The notes beneath the pieces were generated by a model. The model did no database searches, was not told where the DNA came from, and was given only the letters and a program-made list of their open reading frames with translations. DNA of 34,286 bases, from NCBI GenBank assembly GCA_000934665.2, contig JYFJ02001050.1:62001-96286 (forward strand), in the 5' to 3' direction. Position numbers and translations under genes: made by a program. This DNA is from Catajapyx aquilonaris. Its lineage: Eukaryota. Position 1 is the stretch's first letter; every line of letters starts with the position of its first letter. Of the stretch, positions 10,525-34,005 are shown piece after piece.

Positions 10525-13500
10525 TGTGAAACCTGCGACGCGGTTTAAAAATAAGACAAGACCGGTCCGCTCTGGACCTCACTGCTCTCTTGCACACTTG
10601 GGAGCGCATTGCAATAGACATGTTTCCGGAATGGAACACCCAGTCCGCGCTCCTAAATAAAACATTGGGGCTACCACGTTATGCATCCAACAGTACAGTG
10701 ACGTACAAAGTCCAACAATCACATGCTCCGATGGCTATCACTCTGAAAGAGCGTATAGCGTCAACAATCTACTTGACATTATTTCCAGCAAATGACATTT
10801 GGCCTTTCACCTGACTATACATGCAGCGCGTTGGAAATGGTGAGAAAGTCCTCTCTGTCCTACCTGAGGGTCAAACTCTGGCGATAAATCATTACCACAG
10901 CCCTTTTTAAATTATAATATATGTATTTTTTTTTTTTTGCTGGAATTTGCATTTGAAAAAAAAAAGAAGTAGCAGATCTGTTAACATCTGTGCAGTCCAG
11001 GATTTGCATCACTGGATTGTACAACAAGTGTGAAATATTGAGCGAAATGCCAATTTGCCCTACCTACAAGTGTCTGCCTTTATAATTCAGTTCCACTCTC
11101 CGCAACTTGTAACGGTCCGGCAGCAGAATCTCATCGGCATCCACGATTGTCGACAGCCTTTGGGCAATGCAGATGGACGAGCAGCCTCGTTTGAGGGCGT
11201 TCATTACGTCCTGTAAAGATCAGCAATTGGGGAGTCTCATTAGCTTCATGCCAACCGCAAATGACAAAATAACTGCACATTAAATGCATGTCAGGAATGG
11301 CATTAAAATCAGCAATATATGCAATCCTTTGTAACGGATGCCACAACAGGACAGAATTGCATGATTTGGTCAAGGTTGCTACCTTTTTGCTGCTCCTCCA
11401 CCCGCGCTGACCTACTTGGCTGGTCAAGCTAAAAAAAGCAACTGGCATCACTTGAAGGGCAAGGAATCGATTTTTAGACATACACTTGCATACATGAATG
11501 TTGTATTTTTTCCAGCGACAAGGAGCAATTTTGCAGCAAGGTCGGCTACCCTGATATCTACTATACCTGAGAGCGCCCCTGAGATGGCATTGCAGGCTGA
11601 GCCTTCACATTGAGCTACATTATGTTGCGTGAGCATTACAAGGTTTGCTTTGTGGGTATTTACAGTGGACGCAAGGATCAGCACTGTATAGTCAGAAACC
11701 TTGCAATCAACCGATACACACTAAAGCCTCATTATGCATTTGGAAGCCAAATCGTACCACCACACATCAAATTAGCAAGTGAAAACGCAAAAAAATTTGT
11801 GAAGCAAATGCATCGCAATGTAATGATGCACAATGCACATACTAAAGATGCAAGTTGTGCAACTCGGAAGCTGCTGCGTCAGAGCCGGTGGCAGTTTCAA
11901 CCTTGGAAACTTTGTGCTGCTCATGAGCAGGTTGCTTAAATGTCACCTGCAGTTATATTTCCCATGTTGCTGCTGAGTTCAGCGAGAAATTGGCACCAAC
12001 ACAAGTAATGGTCGCCAGCAATTGTGGATTGCCCTGCACATCTAATTAGTCGCTCACATGTTCAACTCTCCAACTGAAACCTGTATGAAACAGCAAAAAA
12101 AAGTTGTGTTTTTTCCTCACTACTTTCACAGCAGTACAGTACCAAAGCAACAATAATTACACCAGAACATGGTGGATCATTATTAGCAGAAACTTTGTAC
12201 ACCTTTTGTAACAAATCGTACAGATTCGCCTGAACCCTCGCAGAGGTTTCCATATTGGAGATTGCAGTATATGGACCCGTGGAAAAGAACGCAGTCCATT
12301 TCAACATCTGAAATTCTCTGCCTTCCGACCAGAATGGATCCTGATGATGGCTCCAGGAATGTGGTTCAGGAGTCTACCTATTGTTGACTTCCTACAATAC
12401 AAATTGCGTCCAAGTTAGGAGTGTTTGGGGACCGATACGTATACAACCCTCATTTGGAAGGCACTTTTATCAGCCTCTTGCATTGAAAGTGACAGCACTT
12501 TTTAAAGACATCTATTCCAAATCTGTCAATCGGCAAGTTGTAGGTAAACAACGTGAGGCAACCAGTATTAAGTCTTCAAAAGTGCAGTAAGTGGAAATCT
12601 CAAGGAGGAGATAGTACATCTGATTAAGCAGTATTTGGAAGGCCAATCATGTGTGCTTCGGCTGACATCCTTTTTTTTCTGCGCTGGGATCTGGACCTCA
12701 GATGAGGTAACACTAGGTTATCTCGCAGATATTCCTATCTAATCCTGCTGCTGGTCTGGCACCTGTTCCACAATAGGACTCCCTATGACCCCAATTCTTC
12801 TATTTAAAAAAAAAAATGTGTAAATTGCATGTACAACAGGCCAGGTGTTACCTATTACGGGGAAAAAAACCTAGCTAAAAATTATTCAGGTATGAGCCAA
12901 CAGTGATCTTAGAAACACGTCAGTTTGTTTAAGATGAGAAACATGTCACATATAAATAGTCTTGTTGAGCAATAGTAATGCATAACAGGAAATGTTACAT
13001 GTGACACAATTTTTTTCCCATCATGGCGCAGGTGAGCAATGTGCACAATTACATCTAAAAGCCAAATGCTGCGAGTGACCTGGTAATGCCACCCATCAGT
13101 TAAAGCGAAAATGAGTATGTATTTATTCCACCTTGGATCCCTAACCTACCCCACTCCCACATTTATTAGAGCTCCCGATATGCGATCCCAAGCACTGCGT
13201 GATGCAACCATCCATGACCTTACCTACACCCCAACCCATTAACCAACCTGATGACACTATCAGATAGGAGCGTCTCTTTAAAAGTCAAGGTTGTCTCGGG
13301 CAGACTTTGCGCCCCAGTCATTAACAAGTGATTGAATTTTGTTATCACTGACCTACAAGAGACACCCTTAAAAACCCATTCCCTTAATAAACCAAAGCCT
13401 CAGCTGACCACAATACATCAGAATGCCTGAGCCAATATCTCATCAAGCCTTGACTCACAAGACATATTTATGAATTCCCTCTGATGTTACTGCATGACTG

Positions 13501-15483: not shown

Positions 15484-16485
15484 CCCGCCAGCTGGACAGC
15501 CCTCCTGGAACACCGCAGGAAGCACTGGAATGTGTCCGGATAAAGGAACGAGCAACGAGACCGAGACAATGCAAAGGGGGAAAAAAAAGATGGCGCCTTT
15601 TTTTGAAGCTGCTATGTTATGTGTCGACCAAGGTATTAGTTACTTGTAATAGCAGCGATTTGCAGCCATGTTCCAAACTGCGACTCGTTCAAACTGCTTT
15701 TTTTTTCTTCTTCTAATTTGCGGATAAGAAGAAACGTGCAGAAAAAGTGGGGTTGACAGTACAACTGCATTGTTGGGGTCGCTGACTTTTTTATTACTAG
15801 TCTTTTTTTTTGTATCCACAGTGTGATCTGTACAATTTTGCTGAAAATGGCAATCTTCACTGTGCTCGGACATGTGTCATTTCAAAGTGAAATTTGCAGC
15901 GCGGTTTTAGAATGTGACGACGCCAGTCCGCTCTGGACCGCACCGTTCTCCTGTACTGCACATACGTGGGATGGGAGAGCATTACAAGAATTCCGCTGAA
16001 CGACCCACTGTCAGTAAATAAAACGGTCTTTTTTTTATCACAGAGGCTCCCATCCGTGAAGGTTCAATAAATATCTGCACCTTACAGTATGTACAAAAAC
16101 AATCCACTCACACGCTGCCACTCTGCAACAATGTGGTTAACAAGTTATCTGACATTATTTTCAAATGAGCTTTGGTCTCTCGTCTTGACTTTAACGCAAC
16201 AGTTGAGGGGTAGGCAAGTGTTCCTGGTGTTCAGATGTGCAATTTACAGCTTCGTAGGCTGCGGGCCAGAATTTCAAGTTGTTCTCATGGCGACAACCGC
16301 GTGATGCAACTTAACCCTTGTTGTTTGCATTTGAAAAGAGAAGCATCTGTGCGTCTGCCAGCATTTGCATCACCTGGGTGTGGTACGAGTGCGAAACACG
16401 GAGCAAAATGCCAGCCCTCAACCTGCTCCAATTCTGCCAATTTGTGCTACCTACAAAAGTCTCCGCATTAACCAGACTCCTCTTA

Positions 16486-19400
16486 TTAAGAGCCCATTTT
16501 CTGGGAGTCGGTTGCCACCCTGTGCTGCGCGTGCCACAACTTTGCGTACAGGGAATCACGAGCCATCAGTCCCTGGTGAGATCCACTCTCCGCAACCTTC
16601 CCACCGTCCAGCACCAGGATCTCGTCCGCATCCACGACTGTCGACAGCCTGTGGGCGATGCAGATGGACGTGCGGCCCAAGGTCGCTCGCTTCAGGGCAT
16701 TCATTATGTTCTGCGGAGGAAAACTGAGATAGAAATTTCGCACACAATGCATTAAGTACCGGTACGCACATGCTCGGTGATGGAGTCCAGAGACGAGGTG
16801 GCCTCGTCGAATACGAGAATGGGGGAGTCCTTCATAATAGCCCTTGCGATTGCGACTCTCTGCTTCTCGCCACCGCTCAGCTTCAATCCTCTCTCTCCGA
16901 CCTGGGTCATGTAGCCTTCAGGCCAACCCACCACCGCATCGTGCAAGTCTGCCATCCGCGACGCCCTCTCCACCTCCTCCGGACCCTTTGAGAGGTTCCC
17001 GTACAGCAGATTGTAGTAGATGGACTCGTGGAACAGAACACAATCCTGCGGAACTATGGAGATGTTGCCGCGGAGGCTGTCCATCTCCACATCAGATATT
17101 TGCTTCCCTCCAACCAGAATGGATCCCGATGACGGCTCCAGGAAGCGGTACAGGAGACGAACTATTGTCGACTTCCTACAAAACGCGTCGTCATTAATCC
17201 TGTTCCTATATAATCCCCCAAAATCATCCAGGTTGTACTGACCCGCTTCCTGACCCTCCGACAATGGCCACCTTCTTCCCTGGCTCCACTTTAAAGCTGA
17301 GCCCGTCCATCACTCGCTTCCCTGGCACATACTCGAAGGACACGTCCCTGAACTCAATGCTAGCGGTGTCGGGGGTCACAGACAAGGTCGGGGCACCTTT
17401 CTTGCTCTAAACATGAGAGCAGAGAAAGAAACACATTAATAATACTTTCATGCATGCAAACTTTAATGTATGTAAATCCATTTTTATTAGCCTCATACTT
17501 CTTGATGTAATCAATAAAGTAATACAAATTTGCCGTCCATCAAGTCCTACGCATGAACTCCCCACATAATTGTGCAAGTTGCGCAGTTGCATTGACGTAC
17601 GTATGGATTTATTCCACCTTGAATCCCTAACCTACCCCACTCCCACATTTATTAGGCCTCCGACATGCGATGCCACTACTGGTGTTACGCAACCACCCAT
17701 GACCTTACCTACTTCCCAACCCATTAATTATCCTGATGATATAATCAGATAGGATCCCATCTTTCAAACAATCAAGGTCGTCATGGACACACTTTGCACC
17801 TGTCATTAACAAGTGATTATCATCTGGCGTTCATAATTACAACTGTCCGACTTGCAGACTCACCTGTATTCCTGCAGGAACGGTCATGAGGGCAAACATG
17901 GTCTCCATGTCGATCAGGGCCTGTCTGACCTCCCTGTAGACCGACCCCAGGAATCCCAAGGGCAGCGACAGCTGGAAGAGCAGTCCGTTGACCATGACCA
18001 GGTCTCCAACGGTCATTCTGCCCGCAGCGATCTCCCGTGCGGCCAGGACCATGATCCCGCTGATGGCCACACTGAAGATGGCGTTCTGCCCGAAATTCAG
18101 CCACGCCAGGCTGGTGCTCGTCTTCAGGGAAGATACCTCGTACTTGCGCAACGACAGGTCGTAGCGCTCCGCCTCGTACGCCTCGTTGTTGAAGTACTAG
18201 AGGCGAAAAGCAGCAGCTGATATGTCCCCTCAACAATTTTCCCTCCCCTTCGAGATACCTTCACAGTCTCGTAGTTGATCAACGAGTCAATAGCCTTGTT
18301 TCCAGCGTCATTCTCGGCCTTGTTCATGTCCACCCTGAACTTGGTTCGCCACTGGGTCACCAGCAAGGTGAAGACAGCGTAGACTCCGACGCATCCCACG
18401 GCCACACCTGCAAACTCGGCCCCACACTTGAGGCCCAGAATGGTGGACACCAGGGCCAGCTCAAAGGCGGTGGGAACCACGTTGAACACCATGGCTGACA
18501 TCACAAAGTTGATCCCACGGCTCCCACGATCTATAGTCTGCTCTGGGGCAGGGCATTTAGGGAATTATATAGCGCCTTACTAAATGCGCACTTCCCGCAA
18601 AAGACGTACAACCGAAACTCACCCACTCACCTTGGAGAGAGCTCCGGTTTGCCTGCTGAGATGGAAGGACAGGTCGAGTTGGTGGAGGTGCAGGAACACG
18701 TTCTGCGCTATCTTGCGGATCGAATTCTGGGCCACCTTTGCGAAAACTGCATTCCGAAGCTCGTTGAAGCCTGCTGCACCAGCCCTCGCCACACCATCTG
18801 ACAAGAGAATGACCGGTGAATGCACATCCACATTTCATGCTCCATAAACGTACATCCGATGAGAATGGCAGTGGCGGATGCAAGGACGGCGTTCGGTGCA
18901 GTCTCCATGTTGAGCGTCGAACCAGTGTTGAGAGCGTCGACCCCATACTTGAAGAGGAATGGGACAGTCACCCCCAGCACCTTGGCTCCGACCAAAAGCC
19001 CAACGGCCGTCACCACCGTTCTCCGTACGCCAGGGTTGTCTTTTGGCCAGACGTAATCCATCATGGCACGGAGGACGTGAAGCCCCGACACCTTCGCATG
19101 ACTCAGGCCTATGGTGTCGCGAGATATCATGGACACTCCAGGGTGGAAGCACGGGCGGCGGTGGTCCAAGTACGGGGAGGACAGGGGAGAGGGCAGGGTC
19201 TGCAAAGAATTACATACGTCGTTAAGTATCGTACCGCTATAATCTGTACATAGTATACAATGAGAACATCATTATGTCACAGTAGGTTCAACCCTCTGTC
19301 CAAAATCCGCATCCACTCCTCCATAACAAACACGGCCCACTTAAAGCTGTCGCTCGGATCGGCCACAAGTCTCGCTGCATCCAACTGGCTCTCAATGTTC

Positions 19401-20687
19401 ATCCGCTTGCTCCTCAGCAACGTCGCCAGCACCAGTTTGGCTTCCTTGCCAGCTCCCGTGGCCAAGGCAACTCCTATCGGAACACTTGAAAACAAGCCTG
19501 CAGCTGCAACCTCCAGATTCCATGAGACGCCATCGTGGCTACAGAACATATCTTGTAAAACTAGCCGGTCCTCCACTTCCTTGGCTCGCTTTGAGTCGCC
19601 ACAAGCCAGCAGTTCCTCCCGAGTGAATGTGACCATGTCGTGCGGGTTGTCCTTCAGGGCGAACCCATATTCGGACAGCAAGGTCAGATTGGAATGAGCC
19701 CCGTACGGGATCAACACCTCGCTTCCTCTCCGGCACGTTTTAAGCGCACGTACTTCGTAGCAACGTCGCTCAGTGCTGAATGCGCCTGTTGCGGCACCCA
19801 CATCAGGGGTGTGATTGAGAAGGTCTAAAAACGGAGCCATGCAAACTCCATTTGGCAGGCTCAAACAACGAGTGTTCACATTCCAGTACGCAAGGCTAAA
19901 CAGATCCGCATTGCATTTTGCAAGTGCAGATTCGTACTTCGCATGCGATCGGTGGTACTCCTGCTGCATGTCAGGAGGCAGAAACTGTATCTCAACCTTG
20001 CGACACATTGCAAGAACCGAATGCTCTCGTGGAAGCGTATGAATGAACGGGGCATACCGCGATGTTGCTCCCAGCCTAATTTCTTCCAACAGCCGCATTG
20101 TGAGTTCAGCAGTGTCTGAAGCCGTTATAAGCAGCGGTTCAGGGACGGATATGATCAAGTCGCCTGGTTTGACCGTCTTGCTTGCAACAATCCCACGAAT
20201 TCCAGAGAACAGAGCGGGACGCAGGGAGCTTTGCGGCTGCCAGCCAACGCTCCGCATCCAGCGTGTCAGCCCCACAAACTGCGGCTCGTGATCAAGAGTC
20301 ACGGGATGCTCATCTCTTGCGCATCGTTTCCTCGCGGTCCTTCCCTTTCGTTTCATTCTTTTCAAAGCTGAAACAAAATCAGTTCAGCTTATCCGCTACA
20401 CGTTCTTCCAACATCATCCGTCTAATGAGTAATTAGTTTTTCTTAAAAAAATCCAGCATAATACATGTTTACGTAACCATCTTTTTTTCCGTTCCATATC
20501 TCACCCTATGTCCATCGAGTATCCAGCATCCTGTTACCCTGGATCCGAATCGAAGACGACTAGACACGAAGGAGATTGTCCTCCAGCTTCCCCGTTGGCC
20601 TGGACCCGGGGCCAGACCCCGGGCGGGGCTGCCCCGGGCAAGAACCCGGAGCGATCTCGATCCGACTCCGAACGTGAGGGCGGCCAT
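16486..20687 (-). CDS. ABCB7: Mitochondrial ABC transporter ABCB7/Atm1, 8 exons (20505-20687, 18854-19199, 18631-18797, 18259-18537, 17864-18196, 17243-17406, 16770-17175, 16486-16710), about 700 aa
   Basis: Arg/Ser-rich presequence; [59 protein letters not shown]; Walker A GGSGSGKST; signature [23 protein letters not shown]. All introns are GT-AG with consistent phases. The exon 1 donor could alternatively be at 20537. Confidence 0.96.
19277..20356 (-). CDS. SETD4: SET domain-containing protein 4-like lysine methyltransferase, intronless CDS (359 aa) nested in ABCB7 intron 1
   Basis: Basic N-terminus [11 protein letters not shown], then L..W, RGIVA....[24 protein letters not shown] and [15 protein letters not shown]. 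These are SETD4-type (Rubisco-LSMT family) motifs. Confidence 0.88.
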   Translation of the reverse strand: MKRKGRTARKRCARDEHPVTLDHEPQFVGLTRWMRSVGWQPQSSLRPALFSGIRGIVASKTVKPGDLIISVPEPLLITASDTAELTMRLLEEIRLGATSRYAPFIHTLPREHSVLAMCRKVEIQFLPPDMQQEYHRSHAKYESALAKCNADLFSLAYWNVNTRCLSLPNGVCMAPFLDLLNHTPDVGAATGAFSTERRCYEVRALKTCRRGSEVLIPYGAHSNLTLLSEYGFALKDNPHDMVTFTREELLACGDSKRAKEVEDRLVLQDMFCSHDGVSWNLEVAAAGLFSSVPIGVALATGAGKEAKLVLATLLRSKRMNIESQLDAARLVADPSDSFKWAVFVMEEWMRILDRGLNLL

Positions 20688-20945
20688 CTTGGAACACACT
20701 CTCGGGGGGCCGAACCCAACGCAGCAGCTGACAACCCCCAACAAATAGCTAGGGGAAATTGCGCCAATTGGAATATTAGCTAGAAATATAACAGGTTGAC
20801 AGAAACTTACAATTTATTTTAGCAAATTTGCACAATTTTTGCATTGTTAACAAGCGCAGTGTCCTGAGTACTGTCAGATCTCATTAGGTATAAACAATAC
20901 ATGCCAATGACATTGTAATAGCGTTTGTATTTAATTGTGATTAAA

Positions 20946-21860
20946 TCAATGCGCACTTTCCGCACTTTCCTGTTGAGTGCAAATCTGTCCAACTTGTTGC
21001 AAAAATGCAATGAATGGGTCCAATTTGTCCTCCTGGTTGACCCTCCGCCTCCAGAGCAATTCGCTGACGTTGGATGCAAACTCTTCCGGATCAGCCGCCG
21101 CATCAATCCTCCGGATCTTCTTCAGCATCTGGGCCATTGCAGCTTCCACCTCGGATATGTCCAGCCCCCGGTCGTCCTTCTCCGGAATGTGGTAGTCGTA
21201 ACTGTGGCTCAGCACAATGTGGCGGAATATCTCTTGCGACTGGCCGTCGTACGCCATCCAGCTGTCGGTGGATATCACGCTGCCCTTCTGGACGTGCCTG
21301 GACACTAGGGACATGAGGGTGGGAATGTTGTGCGAGTTGTCCTCAACCATGTCCAGCCGCGCTTGGGTGTCATCCACCAGACCGATCAGCCACAGTGTCG
21401 GGGCAGCATCACCATCGTGCCGCCTCTTCCGGCCTCCCACTTTAACCTCATGGATCTCAACCGGTTTGCCGCACCCACCAATCATCCTGCTGGGAGGTTG
21501 TATCTGAAGCGCCTTGCTGCACATACGTCTCGCCTGCTTGTACACACCGCATGCAACGTCTTCAGTGACAAGTTGAGGGCATTGGTCGGCCGCAATGCAC
21601 GGAGCCATAGAGCGTATGAAGCAGTAGGTAAGGACAAGCACCACGTCCATCGGCAACTGGTTCAAGTGAAGCCAGGGATGCCGGAACACCCTGTCGCACT
21701 TGCTGCATTCGAACCTGATGCTGCTTCGAGGCTGCATCGTCTGGCCATGCCTTGGGCATCTGGCCCGCAGCAGCCCCACCATCCTGCACCACTTGGCGGT
21801 CGTGGTCGGGTCCACCAGTACGTCTTGGCCCAGCCTCCGAAGATTCCATCTCCCATCCAT
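20946..21860 (-). CDS. IS1595/ISXO2 (Merlin)-transposase-derived protein A, intronless CDS, 304 aa, probably domesticated
   Basis: CPRH...CSKC zinc ribbon; IGGCGKPVEIHEVKVGGRKRR (family pattern IGG.G..VEIDE.K.G.RK); ISTDSWMAY; ELLWRR. The start at MDGRWNL was chosen by alignment to the neighbouring paralogue. AATAAA on the - strand at 20813-20818. Confidence 0.85.
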   Translation of the reverse strand: MDGRWNLRRLGQDVLVDPTTTAKWCRMVGLLRARCPRHGQTMQPRSSIRFECSKCDRVFRHPWLHLNQLPMDVVLVLTYCFIRSMAPCIAADQCPQLVTEDVACGVYKQARRMCSKALQIQPPSRMIGGCGKPVEIHEVKVGGRKRRHDGDAAPTLWLIGLVDDTQARLDMVEDNSHNIPTLMSLVSRHVQKGSVISTDSWMAYDGQSQEIFRHIVLSHSYDYHIPEKDDRGLDISEVEAAMAQMLKKIRRIDAAADPEEFASNVSELLWRRRVNQEDKLDPFIAFLQQVGQICTQQESAESAH

Positions 21861-22013
21861 CAAGCCACAGCTGGCCAGAAATGAATCAAAAATAAACATG
21901 GCGGACCTGTTGGTGGCTCCACTGGTGATGAATTTGTGATGAACTGATGAACAGAGCAAATGCTGTAAGTTGTGTGCCATGTGCAAATAGCAAGTACACT
22001 CATTACCTGGAGC

Positions 22014-22919
22014 ATGGAAGGCCACTGGAACCTGCTTCGCCTGCAGCTTGAGGTGTTCAGAGACCACGACACGACGGTGCGCTGGTGCCAGGCGGTTGGG
22101 CTCCTCCCGAGCAGAAGGAAGTGCGAGCGGCATGGCCTGCAGATGCGGATGACCACCAGGTTCGTCCATGGGTTCGGCTCCTTCAGATGCACTGACAGCC
22201 GCTGCAGTGTCCAGCGCAGCCTCTCCGTCGGAACCTGGTTTGAGAGCTGCAGTATTCCTATCGACACCGCCATCACGCTCACGTACTGCTTCACCGTGGG
22301 AATGAGCTACGAGGAGACTGGGGTCGAGAGCACCCTGCGGTTGAATGACCTGTCGCCACACACCATATCCACTCGCTTCCAGGCCTGCAGGCAAGTGTGC
22401 GCAAACGTGATCAAGCAGGACACGCTGCAGGTAGGCGGCGACTGCCTGGTGTACCTACATGAGGCCAGGGTGGGCCACGGCGTCACCAAGGGGAAGAAGG
22501 TGCGTCAAGGCATATGGATCCTCGCTCTGACCGACGGAAGGAACACACGTTACATGCCCCTCTCCACTCACACCATGGACCAGCTGATGCTAGTGCTGAA
22601 CAATGTTGTGGTGCCTGGAAGCACCATTGTTACAGAGTGCTGGAAAGCCTACGACGTAGACAAGGAACGGTTTGAGCAAACGCTGGACAAACATGGATTG
22701 TCATTCATGGAGACGCCGCAAGCCGTGGATGCAACCGGCGTTCCAGCTGTGTTCCAGGAGATGGAGAAGCACCTGGGAAAGGCTGGAGTGAGGCAGGAGC
22801 ACATCGAATTGCATGTGTGCGAGTTCCTCTGGAGGCAGAAAGTCAAGGAAGAAAAGAAAGATGTGTTTGCTGCGTTTGTGGCTGATATCGGAAAGGTCTA
22901 CAGCCTGCAGTCTAAGTGA
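22014..22919 (+). CDS. IS1595/ISXO2 (Merlin)-transposase-derived protein B, intronless CDS, 301 aa, probably domesticated
   Basis: MEGHWNL start; CERH...CTDSRC; RSLSVGTWFE; VGGDCLVYLHEARVG; VVPGSTIVTECWKAY; EFLWRQ. Third codon positions are GC-rich like those of the neighbouring host genes. Confidence 0.85.
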   Translation: MEGHWNLLRLQLEVFRDHDTTVRWCQAVGLLPSRRKCERHGLQMRMTTRFVHGFGSFRCTDSRCSVQRSLSVGTWFESCSIPIDTAITLTYCFTVGMSYEETGVESTLRLNDLSPHTISTRFQACRQVCANVIKQDTLQVGGDCLVYLHEARVGHGVTKGKKVRQGIWILALTDGRNTRYMPLSTHTMDQLMLVLNNVVVPGSTIVTECWKAYDVDKERFEQTLDKHGLSFMETPQAVDATGVPAVFQEMEKHLGKAGVRQEHIELHVCEFLWRQKVKEEKKDVFAAFVADIGKVYSLQSK

Positions 22920-23600
22920 GCTGTACATCCGCAGAGATATGTTGTGTAACAATGACTCTCTAATTTTGTACCAATGCAATATATTTGACATGGTTACATA
23001 AGCTTCTGTACTACAGTGCGGGAAACGAAACGGCAATCTGACATACATTGTTCTTTTTTGTTGACATTATTGTTTGCTCATACTGTTGTGTGAGGGTATT
23101 TCCATGGAAACCCCGATAATTGCAGTTTCATTTTCCGCACTGTATATTTATTTTGAAAATTCTTAACTTTTAAATAATCGTTTATGACAGGAATTTAAGT
23201 GCAAAAAGTCTCCACTGCACCTTCGCATGTTACTTTGCTCATTTTTAACAACAAGTCTACATGCAGTAATCAAATGTAGGTTTCAAACCCATATGTTAAA
23301 CTTTGCTGCAACAATGCCAAACTGTCGCTGAAAGACTCGTGCAATTCTGAAATGTTGGCCGTATATTTAAGATTTGTTTATTCCACACAAGTACTTATGA
23401 TGTTGACATACAGTAACTTTTAAGGAACTTGGTCCCTCGGAGGATGTAGTTATCAACGTAGCGCATGACAGCCTGAATTTGGGACTTCAACATCAGCAGA
23501 TCACTTTAGCTCCATCTTGCAGCTAACACCTGAAATCAACATGCAACTGGCGAATTAATCTCATCATCGTTCGCCGCAGTCGTGCTCATACCTATAGTTG

Positions 23601-23831
23601 CTAATATGGGCTTTCCCACCCTCCAGGTCCCCTCTTGTAGCCACTCATGTGGAACAAGTCGTTCTTGTCGTACAGGGGACCCCGCAGTGGTGAGTAGTAC
23701 TGGTACAGAACCTTGCATGTTGCTGCGCGGGGCACGGAAAAGTATTCCACGGCAACCTGGCTGATGGAGTCGCTGCGGCCTCCGTTCGCCTGCCTGGCTG
23801 CCAGCTCCTTCTCCTTGCTGTTATCTGCCAT
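23601..23831 (-). CDS. Unidentified small protein, 76 aa (MADNSKEKELAARQ...YYSPLRGPLYDKNDLFHMSGYKRGPGGWESPY)
   Basis: GCCATGG start context, strong G/C bias at third positions, and an upstream acceptor-like CAACAGCAG. A 61-nt GT-AG intron candidate (23531-23591) lies just after the stop, with AATAAA on - near 23147-23152. The ORF is divergent from UPRT. Confidence 0.55.
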   Translation of the reverse strand: MADNSKEKELAARQANGGRSDSISQVAVEYFSVPRAATCKVLYQYYSPLRGPLYDKNDLFHMSGYKRGPGGWESPY

Positions 23832-23974
23832 GGCCGGGTACCCGAAATTATTCTGCTGTTGATATACCAAAAGCGGTGCTTCAACTCACTGGAATAGAAC
23901 TGCTGAAAGTGTCGTTTGGGAAACCGACCATTGTTTGAAACACCCGCCGATTTGCACCTACACATGTACACCAC

Positions 23975-24110
23975 GATTCTGCGCATGCGTTGCACACATA
24001 CGCATGCGCCACACATGTGACTGTTCAAATTTCAAAATGGCTGCCTGCTATCTTTCCCTATTGAAGCCGCTTTAAACCGCCCATGTAGGCCGCCATCTTG
24101 CAGCTACGTT
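23975..24110. promoter_or_regulatory. Probable bidirectional promoter between the small ORF and UPRT
   Basis: NRF1/Ewg-like GCGCATGCG motifs at 23981-23989 and 24000-24009. YY1/Pho-like motifs in opposite orientations: CAAAATGGCTGCC (24033-24045) and GCCGCCATCTTG (24089-24100). Confidence 0.55.
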
Positions 24111-24289
24111 CAGGCGCGGACCAATCCCAGTGCGCGATTCGCCTCCACGTGACCGTCCAGATCCCCAACATGTCCGCCCATCTCCGGCTTCAAGTTTGGT
24201 GCATTGCACACCACACGTTGCATCGGGTTGGTGCTGCGCACCAGGGGTGATCCTCCCGGCCTTTTGGTGACAGCCGGTCACTCGGTGGG

Positions 24290-26040
24290 ATGGTGGCCGA
24301 GAGAGTGGAAGTGCAGCAGCAGCCGCAGGGAGAGATGAGCTGCGGATGCGCCAAGAACAAGTGCGACTGCAGCAGGCGCAAGCACAAGCTGGAGGAAGAC
24401 AATGCGGTGGTACCGCACGAGGAAGACGAGGTGAAGCAGCAGGTACAGCCAAGCAAGGCCAGCAGCACCTCGACGTCGTCTCCGTCCGACTCATTAGACT
24501 TCGGTGCCAACCTGAAGGTCCTGCCTGGAAACGACCAGATCAAGGAGATACAGACCATCATCAGGGACAGAAACACCACCAGATCAGACTTCAAGTTCTA
24601 CGCAGACCGACTGGTCAGTATAGTACGCACCGTTCAGGTACCATTTGAGTTGCACCAAAAATTGGTGCATTGAACAGCTGCCAGTAGCATTGCCACGTAG
24701 GCTAATTACCAAGCAGGTGGTACTTATGCAAGTTAAAGTGTGAAATCCGGGAATGCAAAAAGAGACGCATTATCAGTCCAACCTTGGAATAGGTTAACGC
24801 TCCAATTTCAATTTTATATCATTTGATTGACCTTCATGTCGACTGGTTTTTCGATGGCGATCCGGCTTTCCATGAACTTGAAGGGAAAGTGGTTTTAGTT
24901 CCGGGGGGAAAAAACAATCCTGTTGTCTGCGATGGCACAGATAAACATTTTGCCAAAGTGTCAATATCCAGCGCTAAACAAAAAAAATCAGATAAGAATA
25001 TTCTTTGCATCAGTCTTCATTCTCCTTATCTTGCATGACTACTGTGCAATCAGGGGGGCCTCTCTGCCCCATTTGAGAGGTCGTTAAACTGACGCCTTGA
25101 TTTTTATCGGGCGGACATTTCTTCCACTTTTGTTGCTATACGGACTGGCTGTAAACATTGTGCATCACAGTGATTGTGAGGAAGGCGTGACAATGGTGTC
25201 CTTTTTCCTGTCAGATCCGCCTGGTGATTGAGGAGAGTCTGAACCAGCTGCCATACTCCCCGATGACAGTGACAACCCCAACAGGATACGAGTACCATGG
25301 CCTGCGATACGAGAAGGGTAACTGTGGGGTGTCCATTGTGAGGAGCGGAGAGGCCATGGAGCAGGGGCTGAGGGACTGCTGCAGGTCCATCCGCATTGGG
25401 AAGATCCTGGTTGAGTCGGACGTAGACACGCACGAGGCCAGGGTCGTGTACGCCCGCTTTCCAGATGACGTTTGCAACAGGAAGGTGCTCCTCATGTATC
25501 CAATCATGAGTGAGTTAACTCGTCTTGATATGCAAAGAATTTTAGACGATCCCACTGTGACCTCATTATGCACCATCACAGTTGGGTCTATCAACTAGGC
25601 AGGAAGAAGTGCCACAATGTGTCAGGCACTTACTGAAAGGTTGTAGTACAGCATAACTTTCCCCAAGTTACGCAACAGATTGTGTACAATGTAAGATCAC
25701 GTAAAGGGGTGCAAAATATTTAAAATTTTACTGCCCATTATTATTCATGCAGCAGTAAAACACGCCAACTTGTATAAGGCATTGTTCAGATTACGTTTGC
25801 GCTTGTTTGTCAATGTCGCAAAATTATTTTCCAGGCACCGGGAACACTGTGATCAAGGCTGTGAATGTCCTGCGAGAGCACGACGTTCCAGAGGACAACA
25901 TTATTCTGGCCAACCTCTTCTGCACGCCACAAGCAGCTGCCATGGTCACTCAAGTTTTCCCGCAGATGAAGATTCTTACGTCAGAGGTCCATCCAATCAC
26001 ACCAAATCACTTTGGGCAGAAGTACTTTGGGACTGACTAA
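24290..26040 (+). CDS. UPRT: Uracil phosphoribosyltransferase homolog, 3 exons (24290-24613, 25215-25509, 25835-26040), 274 aa
   Basis: NDQIKEIQTIIRDRNTTRSDFKFYADRL/IRLVIEESLNQLP...CGVSIVRSGEAMEQGLRDCCRSIRIGKILV...LLMYPIM/STGNTV...PNHFGQKYFGTD is the animal UPRT type. AATAAA at 26041. Confidence 0.95.
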
Positions 26041-26873
26041 AATAAACCCAGGACGCAAATTGTACACAGATTTATTTACAGACCAAGTAACAGAAAAACA
26101 AAAAAAATGCACTCCAGGTCAGCAAAAAAAATGAGTGATTTATAAACATGTGGAGCTCAACTGTGCATCATGCGAATTATGCAGGTATTTCGACCACATG
26201 ACAATTGCATAAACATTAGACACTTGCGCTTTTCACATATTTAAATAACTAAAAAAACGCAAAATGTTGAAGGATATTGCGTATCGTTGTGCATAGGCAG
26301 TCATTGCTGTTACGTTAATTACAATGGCCGAATTTAGTTAAATAAAATAATGTTTACTTAACGAGAAGCCTTTCATTTCCAATTCTGAATTGAAACTAAT
26401 TCTTATTCGCTTCTAGCTAACCATTAGTTTCAGTCTTTTTGCATAGTCCCACGTCTTGGGACAATATTCCTGTGTTTGCACTTGCAGATTGAAATCATTA
26501 CAGCCTTGAGGCAATTATTGCACAGCTGGCAGAGAGAGAAATTAGACTAGAGGCAAGTGGCATCCATTTCCGCTCTTCACATTAATAATTGCAAAGAATC
26601 ATTGAGCTTAACTCAAAATTTGTAGCAAGAGCCATGAAATGAGCAAGTTATTATTTTTTTTAAAATTAACCCAACCTCTCGGAACAAGTCGAGTTTTAAA
26701 CAACCATAAACAACAAAGCAACGTTTCCCCTTCCACACATGCGAAGAAAAAAAAATTTGATATATAATATGATGATGGGCTCAGTAAAATTTTTCCACAA
26801 TAGAAAGTGTCCCAACTCACACAGTGGCAGTTGGATGCTGATTTTTTTCCCTCTGGTTTCCTTTCACACCTCA

Positions 26874-32662: not shown

Positions 32663-34005
32663 TCATGTCGGTTCCGGAGTGGTCCATCTCAATGAGTGGA
32701 CCAGGTTTTCCAGTGCGGTTCTGTAGTCGCTGGATGGGAAGCTGGATATGTCCTGGAGGGTCGTGAAGATCAGGTCCTCCATGAAGAACTGCGCTTCTTC
32801 CATCGCGTCACCGGACACAACCACTTCTTGAAGCTGGACAGAACAATGGGTTACACCAATGTGATTGTGAGCAAATAAGGAGGACTCACCTTCTTGTAGT
32901 CTACTCCGTTTTCTGAGAGGACAATGTCAAGGACTGATCTGGGATCGGTCTTCATCTGCAGTAGGACCGGAAGCGAGATTAGTGGGAACTCGTCGCTTCC
33001 GTCTCCGGCGCTCCTGAAGAGCTGTATGTCCGCATGCGCCTTCCAGGAGAGGACCGTGCCTTCCGCCACCTTCCCACCAATTTGGACCACGTGTGGGGCA
33101 TGGTCTGCCAGCATCAGGGCAGCCATGGTTGTCCCCGCAACAATAACCCCGTCCGAACCCGAGTGCCAGTGTCGCCACTTCTCCTCGGTCCAGTCAGTGT
33201 TCAGGCTGACCTCGCCCCTCTTCCCCCAGGGCTCCAGCTCAAACTCGGTGCGACACATCTCCTGCAGAGACTCCATTATGACAACAATGGCGCTGGGGTT
33301 GTCCAGCTCAGCCATGGCCATTGAAGCCACAATCTGGAAAAAGTCGCCGCTCAAGACTGTCAGCTTGAGCCTGCTTTTCATGTCCTCATCCATCTCAGAC
33401 GGCTTGGAGGATGTGTCTGGGTCTTCCGGCTCGTCAGGTTTTAGTCCCTGGTGCAGAAAGCAGCCCATGTGAAGCAGCTCAGTTATCTTCGCTACCGAAC
33501 GCTGCCTGCAATGAATAATCAGAATAACAGGCCACGCATGCTAATTAACAGCTCGATAAAAACGGACTCACTTTCCAGTGACCTCCAGTGTGTGCGTATC
33601 TGTATTAAGTTGCGCTGCAGCCTGAGACATCAGAAGCACCAGAAGGCCTCGGGCTGGAGCGCTGTCCAGCTGGCCAGACATTACTCCTCTACGAGAAATA
33701 AACCAGTTACCAATCAATCACATATTTACGATATGTGCAAATAGTGCGTACTTTGTGTACTGAACCAATGGATTGTTGATGTCGAGGCTATCAAGCGTGA
33801 GGTTCATCTGGCTGATCTCCTCGCTGCTTACGTCCTTCATTCCGCTCCCAAAGAAATCCGGGTAGTCAACCAGCGCCTTGCCCTCAGCCAGAGCCTGCTG
33901 GAAATCCAACTGGCGGCGGTGACGAGTCTGGAACTTCTGCACATTGCGAGTCAGTGCCCTGCGAACCCGGCTGGCCAGGTGGACCAACTTGCGCGCCGGA
34001 AGCAT
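32663..34005 (-). CDS. PDSS2: Divergent decaprenyl-diphosphate synthase subunit 2-like protein, 4 coding exons (33752-34005, 33572-33688, 32890-33505, 32663-32833), 385 aa
   Basis: AEGKALVDYP, RGLLVLLMSQAA, QRSVAKITELLHMGCFLHQGL, VLSGDF, ADIQLF and SLPVLL parallel PDSS2 motifs (EAEK.VGYP, RGLVVLLISKAA, QRSLAEITELIH, LSGDF). No DDxxD is present. Exon phases are consistent. Confidence 0.8.

Follow-up and report, generated by a model that had tools for sequence, protein, structure and literature searches.

We show that a stretch of Catajapyx aquilonaris DNA contains two adjacent genes, A and B, that descend from a Merlin/IS1595 transposase and have lost residues with which such an enzyme cuts DNA. 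The stretch analysed (the window) comprises 34,286 nucleotides (nt) of contig JYFJ02001050.1 (GenBank assembly GCA_000934665.2, forward-strand positions 62,001 to 96,286), and all coordinates given here are positions within it. The two genes lie head to head between an ABCB7-like gene and a gene for uracil phosphoribosyltransferase (UPRT), have the codon composition of their neighbours, are covered by RNA-derived contigs, and encode proteins predicted to contact each other. We consider it probable that A and B are a domesticated, head-to-head duplicated and non-catalytic pair of Merlin transposases, whose products probably bind DNA and dimerise.

A and B descend from a Merlin/IS1595 transposase

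The locus had been singled out in a sequence-only reading, which described two highly diverged, intact open reading frames (ORFs) of about 300 amino acids (aa) with 153 bp between their start codons. Both frames are indeed intact and encode 304 and 301 aa; the genes point away from each other, and positions 21861-22013 separate their ATGs. Among the stop-to-stop ORFs of the window, the frame of A ranks first (502 aa), ahead of an ORF with a SET domain (368 aa) and of the frame of B (316 aa); the fourth has 237 aa. A 407-aa form of A, starting from an upstream ATG at 22169, was considered and dropped because homology to the family begins at Met1 of the 304-aa form; its extra N-terminal part is antisense through B, which also counts against it.

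The Pfam family DDE_Tnp_IS1595 (PF12762), one of the checks that the sequence-only reading had proposed, recognises A at 33.9 bits (E 3.8e-8), over the gathering score of 27 bits, and leaves B under that cut-off at 17.9 bits (E 0.0032). The link of B to the family runs through A, with which it aligns end to end by BLASTP (28% identity, E 1e-33, 112 bits), in keeping with the divergence noted earlier, and through family members that it matches at a BLASTP E value of 5e-45. A HMMER profile of A and B, run against 1.84 billion representative proteins, gave 2537 matches at E<=1e-3, among which 576 pass E<=1e-10 and 7 pass E<=1e-30; the best 150 were listed. The top matches of ~300 aa, scoring at most 190 bits, are colinear with the pair from the first to the last residue (query 1-325 over residues 1-306) and are ordinary Merlin transposases with the motifs VEIDE, TDCW.GY and IE..W. 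Named relatives among the listed matches come from the tick Ornithodoros turicata, in which five members form a cluster and are spread over several contigs, the mite Oppia nitens, a pseudoscorpion and a cockroach. The family alignment used below holds 137 proteins, namely A, B and the 135 listed matches of 230-450 aa, the 15 of 150 outside this length range being omitted.

All motifs quoted in the sequence-only reading are present in A and B: M(D/E)G.WNL.RL, CxxH...C..C, LTYCF, ELLWR/EFLWR, VEIHE/VYLHE and STDSWMAY/TECWKAY. Several of them, which that reading had listed as shared by the two proteins, are no signature of the pair: full-length Merlin transposases in general have the N-terminus (M.G.WNL..L...D..T..W....LLP), the zinc ribbon, LTYCF and E.LWR. 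At the four ribbon columns, the 137 aligned proteins have C in 122, C in 92 and H in 21, C in 125, and C in 85. The CxxH form of the ribbon was therefore dropped as a mark of erosion, as His occupies that position in 21 of the 137 family members.

AlphaFold2 models both proteins with confidence, giving a predicted local distance difference test score (pLDDT) of 87.1 and a predicted template modelling score (pTM) of 0.86 for A, and a pLDDT of 89.9 and a pTM of 0.87 for B. Foldseek aligns the model of A with retroviral integrases and with the ISCth4 and Sleeping Beauty transposases at E values of ~2e-4 to 1e-3.

Both proteins have lost catalytic residues

A complete D-D-E triad is found in 95 of the 137 aligned proteins, and neither A nor B is among them. 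The first catalytic Asp, which is D in 122 of the 137, is replaced by His in both proteins, as the sequence-only reading had proposed from the motifs, and these are the only two members of the alignment with His in that column. That reading was also right about the remaining positions (Table 1). The second Asp (D in 123 of 137) is kept in A and replaced by Glu in B, and the catalytic Glu (the consensus, in 86% of proteins) is kept in A and replaced by Pro in B. Further changes surround these residues: the Trp three residues after the Glu is Met in A and Phe in B, and A additionally has Ser at a position where the family has Q or N and has lost part of the VNHS motif. At the 33 columns with a consensus of at least 80%, A departs from the consensus at 10 and B at 15, compared with a median of 3 over all 137 proteins.

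The pair is immobile and has kept its reading frames open

Each flank was aligned locally to the reverse complement of the other, for A alone, B alone and the pair, in search of terminal inverted repeats (TIRs). The best inverted flank matches scored 18, 19 and 20, respectively, against shuffle medians of 16, 18 and 19, which upholds the earlier statement that no TIRs are visible. A seed-based repeat search likewise found inverted matches solely between the homologous coding parts of A and B. Merlin TIRs are described in PMC8101967 as starting with GG, with target site duplications (TSDs) of 8 or 9 bp. Contigs of two public runs, a DNA run (X1) and a run whose kind is not on record (X5), were placed on positions 18500-26200. 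No second copy of A or B at 90% identity or more was found among the X1 contigs (stretch 18500-22868). X1 may be the source of the window sequence, and one of its contigs (5480 nt) runs over 18500-23105 with no differing letter. Summed X1 depth is 31.5 in all 17 of 17 bins over the pair and 2245 in the bin that contains a short repeat at 23069-23117, a depth that is not a copy number.

That repeat is the core of an element resembling a miniature inverted-repeat transposable element (MITE), of ~133 bp (23012-23144), which starts 93 bp downstream of the B stop codon. Its ends are 26 nt inverted repeats (23012-23037 and 23119-23144) that are 88% complementary and, unlike Merlin ends, do not start with GG. 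The core is highly repeated, with a depth of 2245 against about 32 elsewhere, and many X1 contigs end there.

Immobile as they are, A and B have intact frames with a coding signature that persists after the loss of mobility. G+C contents at codon positions 1/2/3 are 0.586/0.421/0.707 in A and 0.561/0.405/0.751 in B, and the third-position values bear out the host-like composition claimed for the pair, lying close to those of the ABCB7 (0.67) and UPRT (0.765) exons and far from the 0.33-0.45 G+C of the adjoining non-coding DNA. Across the 274 codons that align, the identity of A to B is 0.54 at first, 0.566 at second and 0.358 at third positions, and third positions are near saturation. In a simulation of neutral substitution with drift to the local non-coding composition and without indels (2000 replicates), 0.1 changes per site, corresponding to ~20% aa difference, left the frame open in 94 (A) and 96 (B) replicates, and 0.2 changes per site in 6 (A) and 4 (B). 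Since simulated frames close this fast, the bulk of the 72% aa difference that separates A from B accrued while the frames were maintained.

The distribution of changes along the proteins is also unusual. Taking residues 1-125 of A as the N-terminal part and 126-250 as the core, A and B are 0.298 identical in the former and 0.270 in the latter, a core to N-terminal ratio of 0.91. Among 2817 control pairs of intact-DDE proteins at 24-34% identity, the two parts average 0.209 and 0.417, respectively, with a median ratio of 2.02, and just 0.07% of pairs have a ratio as low as that of A and B. By these comparisons, the pair conserves its N-terminal module as well as its core, unlike intact transposases. 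Measured against the 95 intact proteins, B reaches 0.25 in the N-terminal part (0.23 between intact proteins) and 0.20 in the core (0.446 between intact proteins), and A reaches 0.29 in the core and 0.19 in the N-terminus. The decay is thus asymmetric, with B keeping the N-terminal part and A keeping more of the core.

RNA-derived contigs cover both genes

Contigs of X5 are spliced across four introns of the flanking genes, with junctions 18797>18854 and 19199>20505 in ABCB7 (CT..AC, that is, GT..AG on the minus strand) and 24612>25214 and 25509>25835 in UPRT (GT..AG), so that X5 is RNA-derived. Two of its contigs lie over the pair and its spacer (Table 1). Neither contains a joint, and A and B are therefore intronless over the covered parts. 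X5 leaves holes at 19271-19527, 20042-20298, 20736-20860, 21593-21708, 23126-24153 and 24668-25181, which are uninformative.

A and B are predicted to contact each other

The sequence-only reading had suggested that the products might form a heterodimer, an idea that finds support in complex prediction. ESMFold2, used in three runs and three controls with no custom alignments supplied, gives A plus B a complex score of 0.70, against 0.01 for the best control. The mark applied is one that 51 of 78 solved complexes reach, compared with 2 of 108 mismatched pairs; in a eukaryote benchmark, 39 of 65 solved pairs without a similar earlier complex reach it, as do 2 of 126 unrelated pairs. Agreement between runs extends to 100% of contacts, and the pLDDT of the partners is at least 81. 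The predicted interface is near-symmetric, joining residues 3-15 and 76-97 of A with residues 4-15 and 88-110 of B, and the contact with the least expected error lies between residue 7 of A and residue 7 of B. The helix at its centre is the N-terminal helix, the part best conserved between A and B. These models support binding of A and B to each other.

Weighing the origin of the pair

Several observations weigh against domestication or against a common origin of the two genes, and we take them together with the explanations that they would favour. The pair could be the remains of an immobilised transposon without host function, whose ends were lost fairly recently and whose frames are open for lack of time. 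We consider this unlikely. In its favour, protein and metagenome searches returned no orthologues, and it is by conservation across species that domestication is customarily proved: word-based homologue searches of 5.8 billion clusters yielded 465 candidates for A and 784 for B, none at E<=0.001, scans of metagenome contigs gave 55 and 246 pattern matches, of which tblastn confirmed 0, and the best HMMER match of ~300 aa, at 190 bits, is an intact transposase and not an orthologue. The word-based searches also missed the window's own proteins, so that the collection is probably without the proteins of this genome. The SET ORF, taken as a coverage control, found just SETD4 proteins of ~30% identity, and because its matches are equally poor, the absence of A and B orthologues says little; the collections may lack relatives. 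An origin as mere remains would also fit the position of A and B among the strongest deviators of the family, their long end branches (1.91 and 1.50 against a median of 1.03), as expected under relaxed constraint, and the sub-threshold Pfam score of B. It fits poorly with two frames of ~300 codons that are intact at 72% aa difference, when 0.2 changes per site closes nearly all simulated frames, and with third positions that are far more diverged than first and second positions and hold a G+C content of 0.71-0.75 next to AT-richer non-coding DNA. Nor would it lead us to expect erosion centred on the core with the N-terminal part kept, RNA-derived contigs over both ORFs, or confident folds for both proteins.

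One match deserves separate mention. P0134 is a 131-aa N-terminal fragment from a 1237-nt Logan contig, which reads ..GRWNIERL.. and has Asn as the second ribbon ligand (CPKNG). It scores 57.8 bits against the N-terminal part of A and 79 bits against that of B, and ranks second for both among the 150 listed matches and the paralogue; for the N-terminal part of A, it is B that precedes it. P0134 may represent part of a protein that is related to the pair and belongs to a different organism.

With regard to common origin, the sequence-only reading held that one inactivated transposase had been duplicated in inverted orientation. An IQ-TREE analysis under a site-heterogeneous model (LG+C20 PMSF), with A, B and the 45 best-ranked matches of 270-360 aa, places A and B as sisters (support 100/98) on a stem of 0.77. 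The two share an identical replacement at two strongly conserved columns: the D>H change at the first catalytic position, with the same CAT codon in both genes and His in 0 of the 135 other members, and an R>H change at a column that is 88% conserved. Of 9045 control pairs, 39 have at least two replacements in common in this way. Moreover, B is the best match of both the N-terminal and the C-terminal parts of A (rank 1 of 92 and 1 of 45).

An alternative, which we judge improbable, is that two different Merlin families inserted independently and came to stand head to head by chance, with long-branch attraction and a parallel Asp-to-His change creating the appearance of kinship. Here the tree itself carries a warning, since two long branches meet and the bootstrap is not fully settled; in leave-one-out trees, the remaining protein falls in the same broad unsupported clade, near P0008, P0009, P0005 and P0006. 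By BLASTP, each protein scores higher to a foreign intact transposase than to its partner (A to P0005 130 bits, B to P0006 148 bits, A to B 112 bits), and from the side of B, A is never the best match, ranking 17 of 143 in the N-terminal part, 49 of 137 in the core and 21 of 100 in the C-terminal part. When control pairs are restricted to strong deviators, 25 of 465 share two or more identical departures. We also counted shared rare residues as a possible synapomorphy, a test that is not decisive: A and B share 5, compared with a control 95th percentile of 4.0 for three bands of identity and 6.6 for the highest band; depending on the band, controls reach maxima of 6 to 8, which this count does not exceed, and another protein has 7 in common with A. 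Independent insertion would nevertheless have to account for the common replacements and the sister grouping described above, for start codons 153 bp apart, and for the lack of ends around either copy. Given the adjacency of the genes and their shared His, we favour a local inverted duplication that followed the Asp-to-His change; the earlier claim fits the sister grouping, and is tempered by the long branches and by a partner that is not the best BLASTP match.

The remaining reservations concern transcription and pairing. For transcription, which the sequence-only reading had put forward as a check, the evidence is coverage of A and B that comes from a single, unstranded run in which transcript ends are not defined. 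The contig that bridges the two genes does not equal one transcript and reflects either overlapping 5' ends or antisense read-through of one gene; the coverage of one gene could also be antisense read-through from the other gene or from an upstream start of ABCB7. As for the predicted complex, close cousins of true partners pass the same test in 10 of 12 cases, and the score therefore does not separate a heterodimer from homodimers.

Finally, it is very improbable that the system is still active, with A as an H-D-E transposase and B as a non-catalytic helper, either within a transposon of two genes or as a nuclease that the host retains to cut DNA, because the retention of the second Asp and the Glu in A, its better-kept core (mean identity to the 95 intact proteins 0.291, against 0.202 for B), the use of His as a metal ligand in some RNase H-like nucleases (Argonaute PIWI, Cas9 RuvC) and a third catalytic residue that reportedly varies among E, N and H in IS1595 are set against a His found at the first position in none of the other aligned members, the loss in A of the conserved Trp after the Glu and of part of the VNHS motif, the lack of inverted repeats around A, B or the pair, and the lack of a second copy at 90% identity or more in X1.

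A model for the pair

Returning to a domesticated pair, we infer the following order of events. A Merlin copy would have inserted in the ABCB7-UPRT interval and shed its ends. A change of the first catalytic Asp to His would have come next, and the gene would subsequently have been duplicated in inverted orientation. Afterwards, both frames would have been kept open and transcribed while the core eroded further, to H-D-E in A and to H-E-P in B. What may have been retained is an N-terminal helix, a DNA-binding module formed by a helix-turn-helix and the zinc ribbon, the RNase H-like scaffold and the C-terminal helices. The 153-bp spacer is presumed to act as a bidirectional promoter, and this shared divergent promoter would allow A and B to be co-expressed. 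Their products would form a heterodimer through the two N-terminal helices, as the ancestral transposase probably dimerised, and would bind DNA without cutting it. Such a complex would most likely act on sites similar to Merlin ends, as a regulator or as a repressor.

It is tempting to go further, and we do so tentatively, with a proposal that we hold to be doubtful. In this extended form, A and B would constitute the first Merlin-derived host gene system in animals, an obligate heterodimer of complementarily degenerated paralogues expressed from one divergent promoter, in which B would contribute a DNA-binding N-terminus of ancestral type and A the better-kept core, with its Asp199 and Glu239. 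The complex would recognise sites like Merlin ends, either silencing relatives of its ancestor or regulating host genes, and might possibly retain a residual H-D-E metal site in A.

The domestication of a DDE transposase is in itself a familiar kind of event. If the pair were conserved in related species, Merlin would be added to the superfamilies with host recruitment, and the locus would be a compact example of a duplication whose copies decayed unequally with a predicted dimer contact kept, as well as a tractable system for the re-use of a dead transposase dimer. If it were confined to one species, it would be a single-locus curiosity.

Genomic context

The sequence-only reading had placed the pair among housekeeping genes, and the annotation agrees, with Pfam identifying exons that encode ABC_tran and UPRTase domains and RNA joints identifying the first exon of the ABCB7-like gene (Table 1). 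That exon begins 211 bp downstream of the A stop codon on the same strand, and at this distance A and B occupy most of the interval separating the divergent ABCB7 and UPRT genes.

Table 1. Coordinates of the pair, its residues and motifs, the covering contigs and the neighbouring genes
Feature	Position	Strand	Description
Gene A	20946..21860	-	304-aa Merlin/IS1595 transposase-derived ORF including stop (P0001); catalytic positions H137-D199-E239
Gene B	22014..22919	+	301-aa paralogue including stop (P0002); catalytic positions H149-E208-P244
Spacer	21861..22013	.	153 bp between A and B start codons; presumed shared bidirectional promoter/overlapping 5' untranslated regions
A N-terminal helix (G.WNL.RL)	21816..21854	-	Residues 3-15, model helix 7-14; core of predicted interface
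B N-terminal helix	22023..22058	+	Residues 4-15, model helix 7-13; predicted interface
A zinc ribbon	21696..21758	-	Residues 35-55: C35-x2-H38 ... C52-x2-C55
B zinc ribbon	22122..22205	+	Residues 37-64: C37-x2-H40 ... C59 ... C64
His137 of A (VEIHE)	21450..21452	-	First catalytic Asp column; codon CAT
His149 of B (VYLHE)	22458..22460	+	First catalytic Asp column; codon CAT
Asp199 of A	21264-21266	-	Second catalytic Asp column; retained
Glu208 of B (TECWKAY)	22635..22637	+	Second catalytic Asp column; codon GAG
Glu239 of A	21144-21146	-	Catalytic Glu column; retained
Pro244 of B	22743..22745	+	Catalytic Glu column
X5 contig, 732 nt	20861..21592	.	Unspliced; 0 differing letters; 3' two thirds of A plus 85 nt past the stop
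X5 contig, 1112 nt	21709..22820	.	Unspliced; 1 differing letter; A 5' end, spacer, 807 of 906 bases of B
ABCB7-like first exon	20505..20735	-	X5 joint 19199>20505, CT..AC = GT..AG on minus strand
ABC_tran exon (ABCB7-like gene)	16755-17309	-	Pfam
SET-domain ORF	19277-20356	-	Pfam SET, 31.2 bits
UPRT exon	25191-25598	+	Pfam

With the first exon of the ABCB7-like gene at its tabulated position, the SET ORF sits entirely within intron 1 of that gene, on the same strand. This ORF is intronless, encodes 359 aa, has vertebrate SETD4 proteins as its top database matches (29-32% identity) and is overlapped by an X5 contig at 19564-20029; it may be a nested SETD4-like gene that is fast-evolving or retrocopied. 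Another intron of the ABCB7-like gene (18798-18853, minus strand) measures just 56 nt, as defined by an X5 joint, suggesting that introns in this genome are very short.

Six blocks of direct repeats (76-93% identity, 4.5-5.5 kb apart) link 10526-13283 with 15887-17768, for example 11112-11186 with 16603-16677 at 85%. They represent a partial second copy of the ABCB7-like 3' exons, lying upstream in the window, which may belong to a tandem paralogue or else to a pseudogene. The blocks also indicate that local duplication has happened in the region. Elsewhere, a 229-aa open frame at 32851-33540 on the minus strand matches polyprenyl synthetase (PF00348) weakly, at a sub-threshold 16.2 bits, and may be an exon of a PDSS-like gene. 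An Rfam scan of the whole window returned no family at its gathering score.

Comparison with known systems

The recruitment of transposases by their hosts is well known for the hAT, piggyBac, Tc1/mariner-pogo, P, Harbinger and Mutator superfamilies. Our full-text literature searches found no characterised Merlin-derived host gene in animals, and the word Merlin is absent from the main text of a preprint on transposase capture in tetrapods (10.1101/2020.05.07.082677). As far as the available part of PMC8101967 goes, domesticated Merlin candidates are proposed there in protists only, and Merlin copies are few in chordates, with 90 sequences in 31 species.

Merlin and IS1595-IS1016 transposases have the same architecture as A and B, consisting of an N-terminal helix, a zinc ribbon, the LTYCF helix, an RNase H-like core and a C-terminal E.LWR helix. 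The nearest named relatives among the matches listed, those of Ornithodoros turicata, Oppia nitens and the pseudoscorpion, are multi-copy genes. Unlike Merlin transposons, A and B have an incomplete DDE triad, no TIRs and no further copy (in X1, at 90% identity or more), and the excess of core over N-terminal conservation is gone. Eukaryotic Merlin elements are described in PMC8101967 as being without the Zn_Tnp_IS1595 Pfam domain; in contrast, a CxxC/H...C..C ribbon is visible by eye across the whole family that we aligned.

The protist candidates, which belong to Stentor, Perkinsela and Symbiodinium groups, are likewise Merlin ORFs without TIRs or TSDs, some of them without a conserved DDE triad, and their domestication is argued in PMC8101967 on the same indirect grounds as that of A and B. 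These organisms are ciliates, kinetoplastid endosymbionts and dinoflagellates, whereas A and B are flanked by ABCB7 and UPRT genes that are of animal type and have GT-AG introns. Also unlike the candidates as described there, A and B form a diverged head-to-head pair with a common derived Asp-to-His change.

Beyond Merlin, domesticated transposase complexes in which some or all subunits lack catalytic residues include PiggyMac with its catalytically dead PiggyMac-like partners in Paramecium, HARBI1-NAIF1 and ALP1-ALP2. These differ from A and B in their piggyBac or PIF/Harbinger origin; PiggyMac still has a catalytic partner, and the Harbinger pairs trace back to both genes of their transposon rather than to duplication of a transposase as proposed for A and B. 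Besides the PiggyMac complexes, the closest model for how A and B may act is provided by FHY3 and FAR1 of Arabidopsis. These immobile paralogues derive from a Mutator-like DDE transposase, contact DNA through an N-terminal zinc-binding domain, form homo- and heterodimers, and work as transcription factors. They differ from A and B in that they belong to the Mutator-like element (MULE) superfamily, are neither adjacent nor divergent, are conserved across angiosperms, and have an experimentally shown function.

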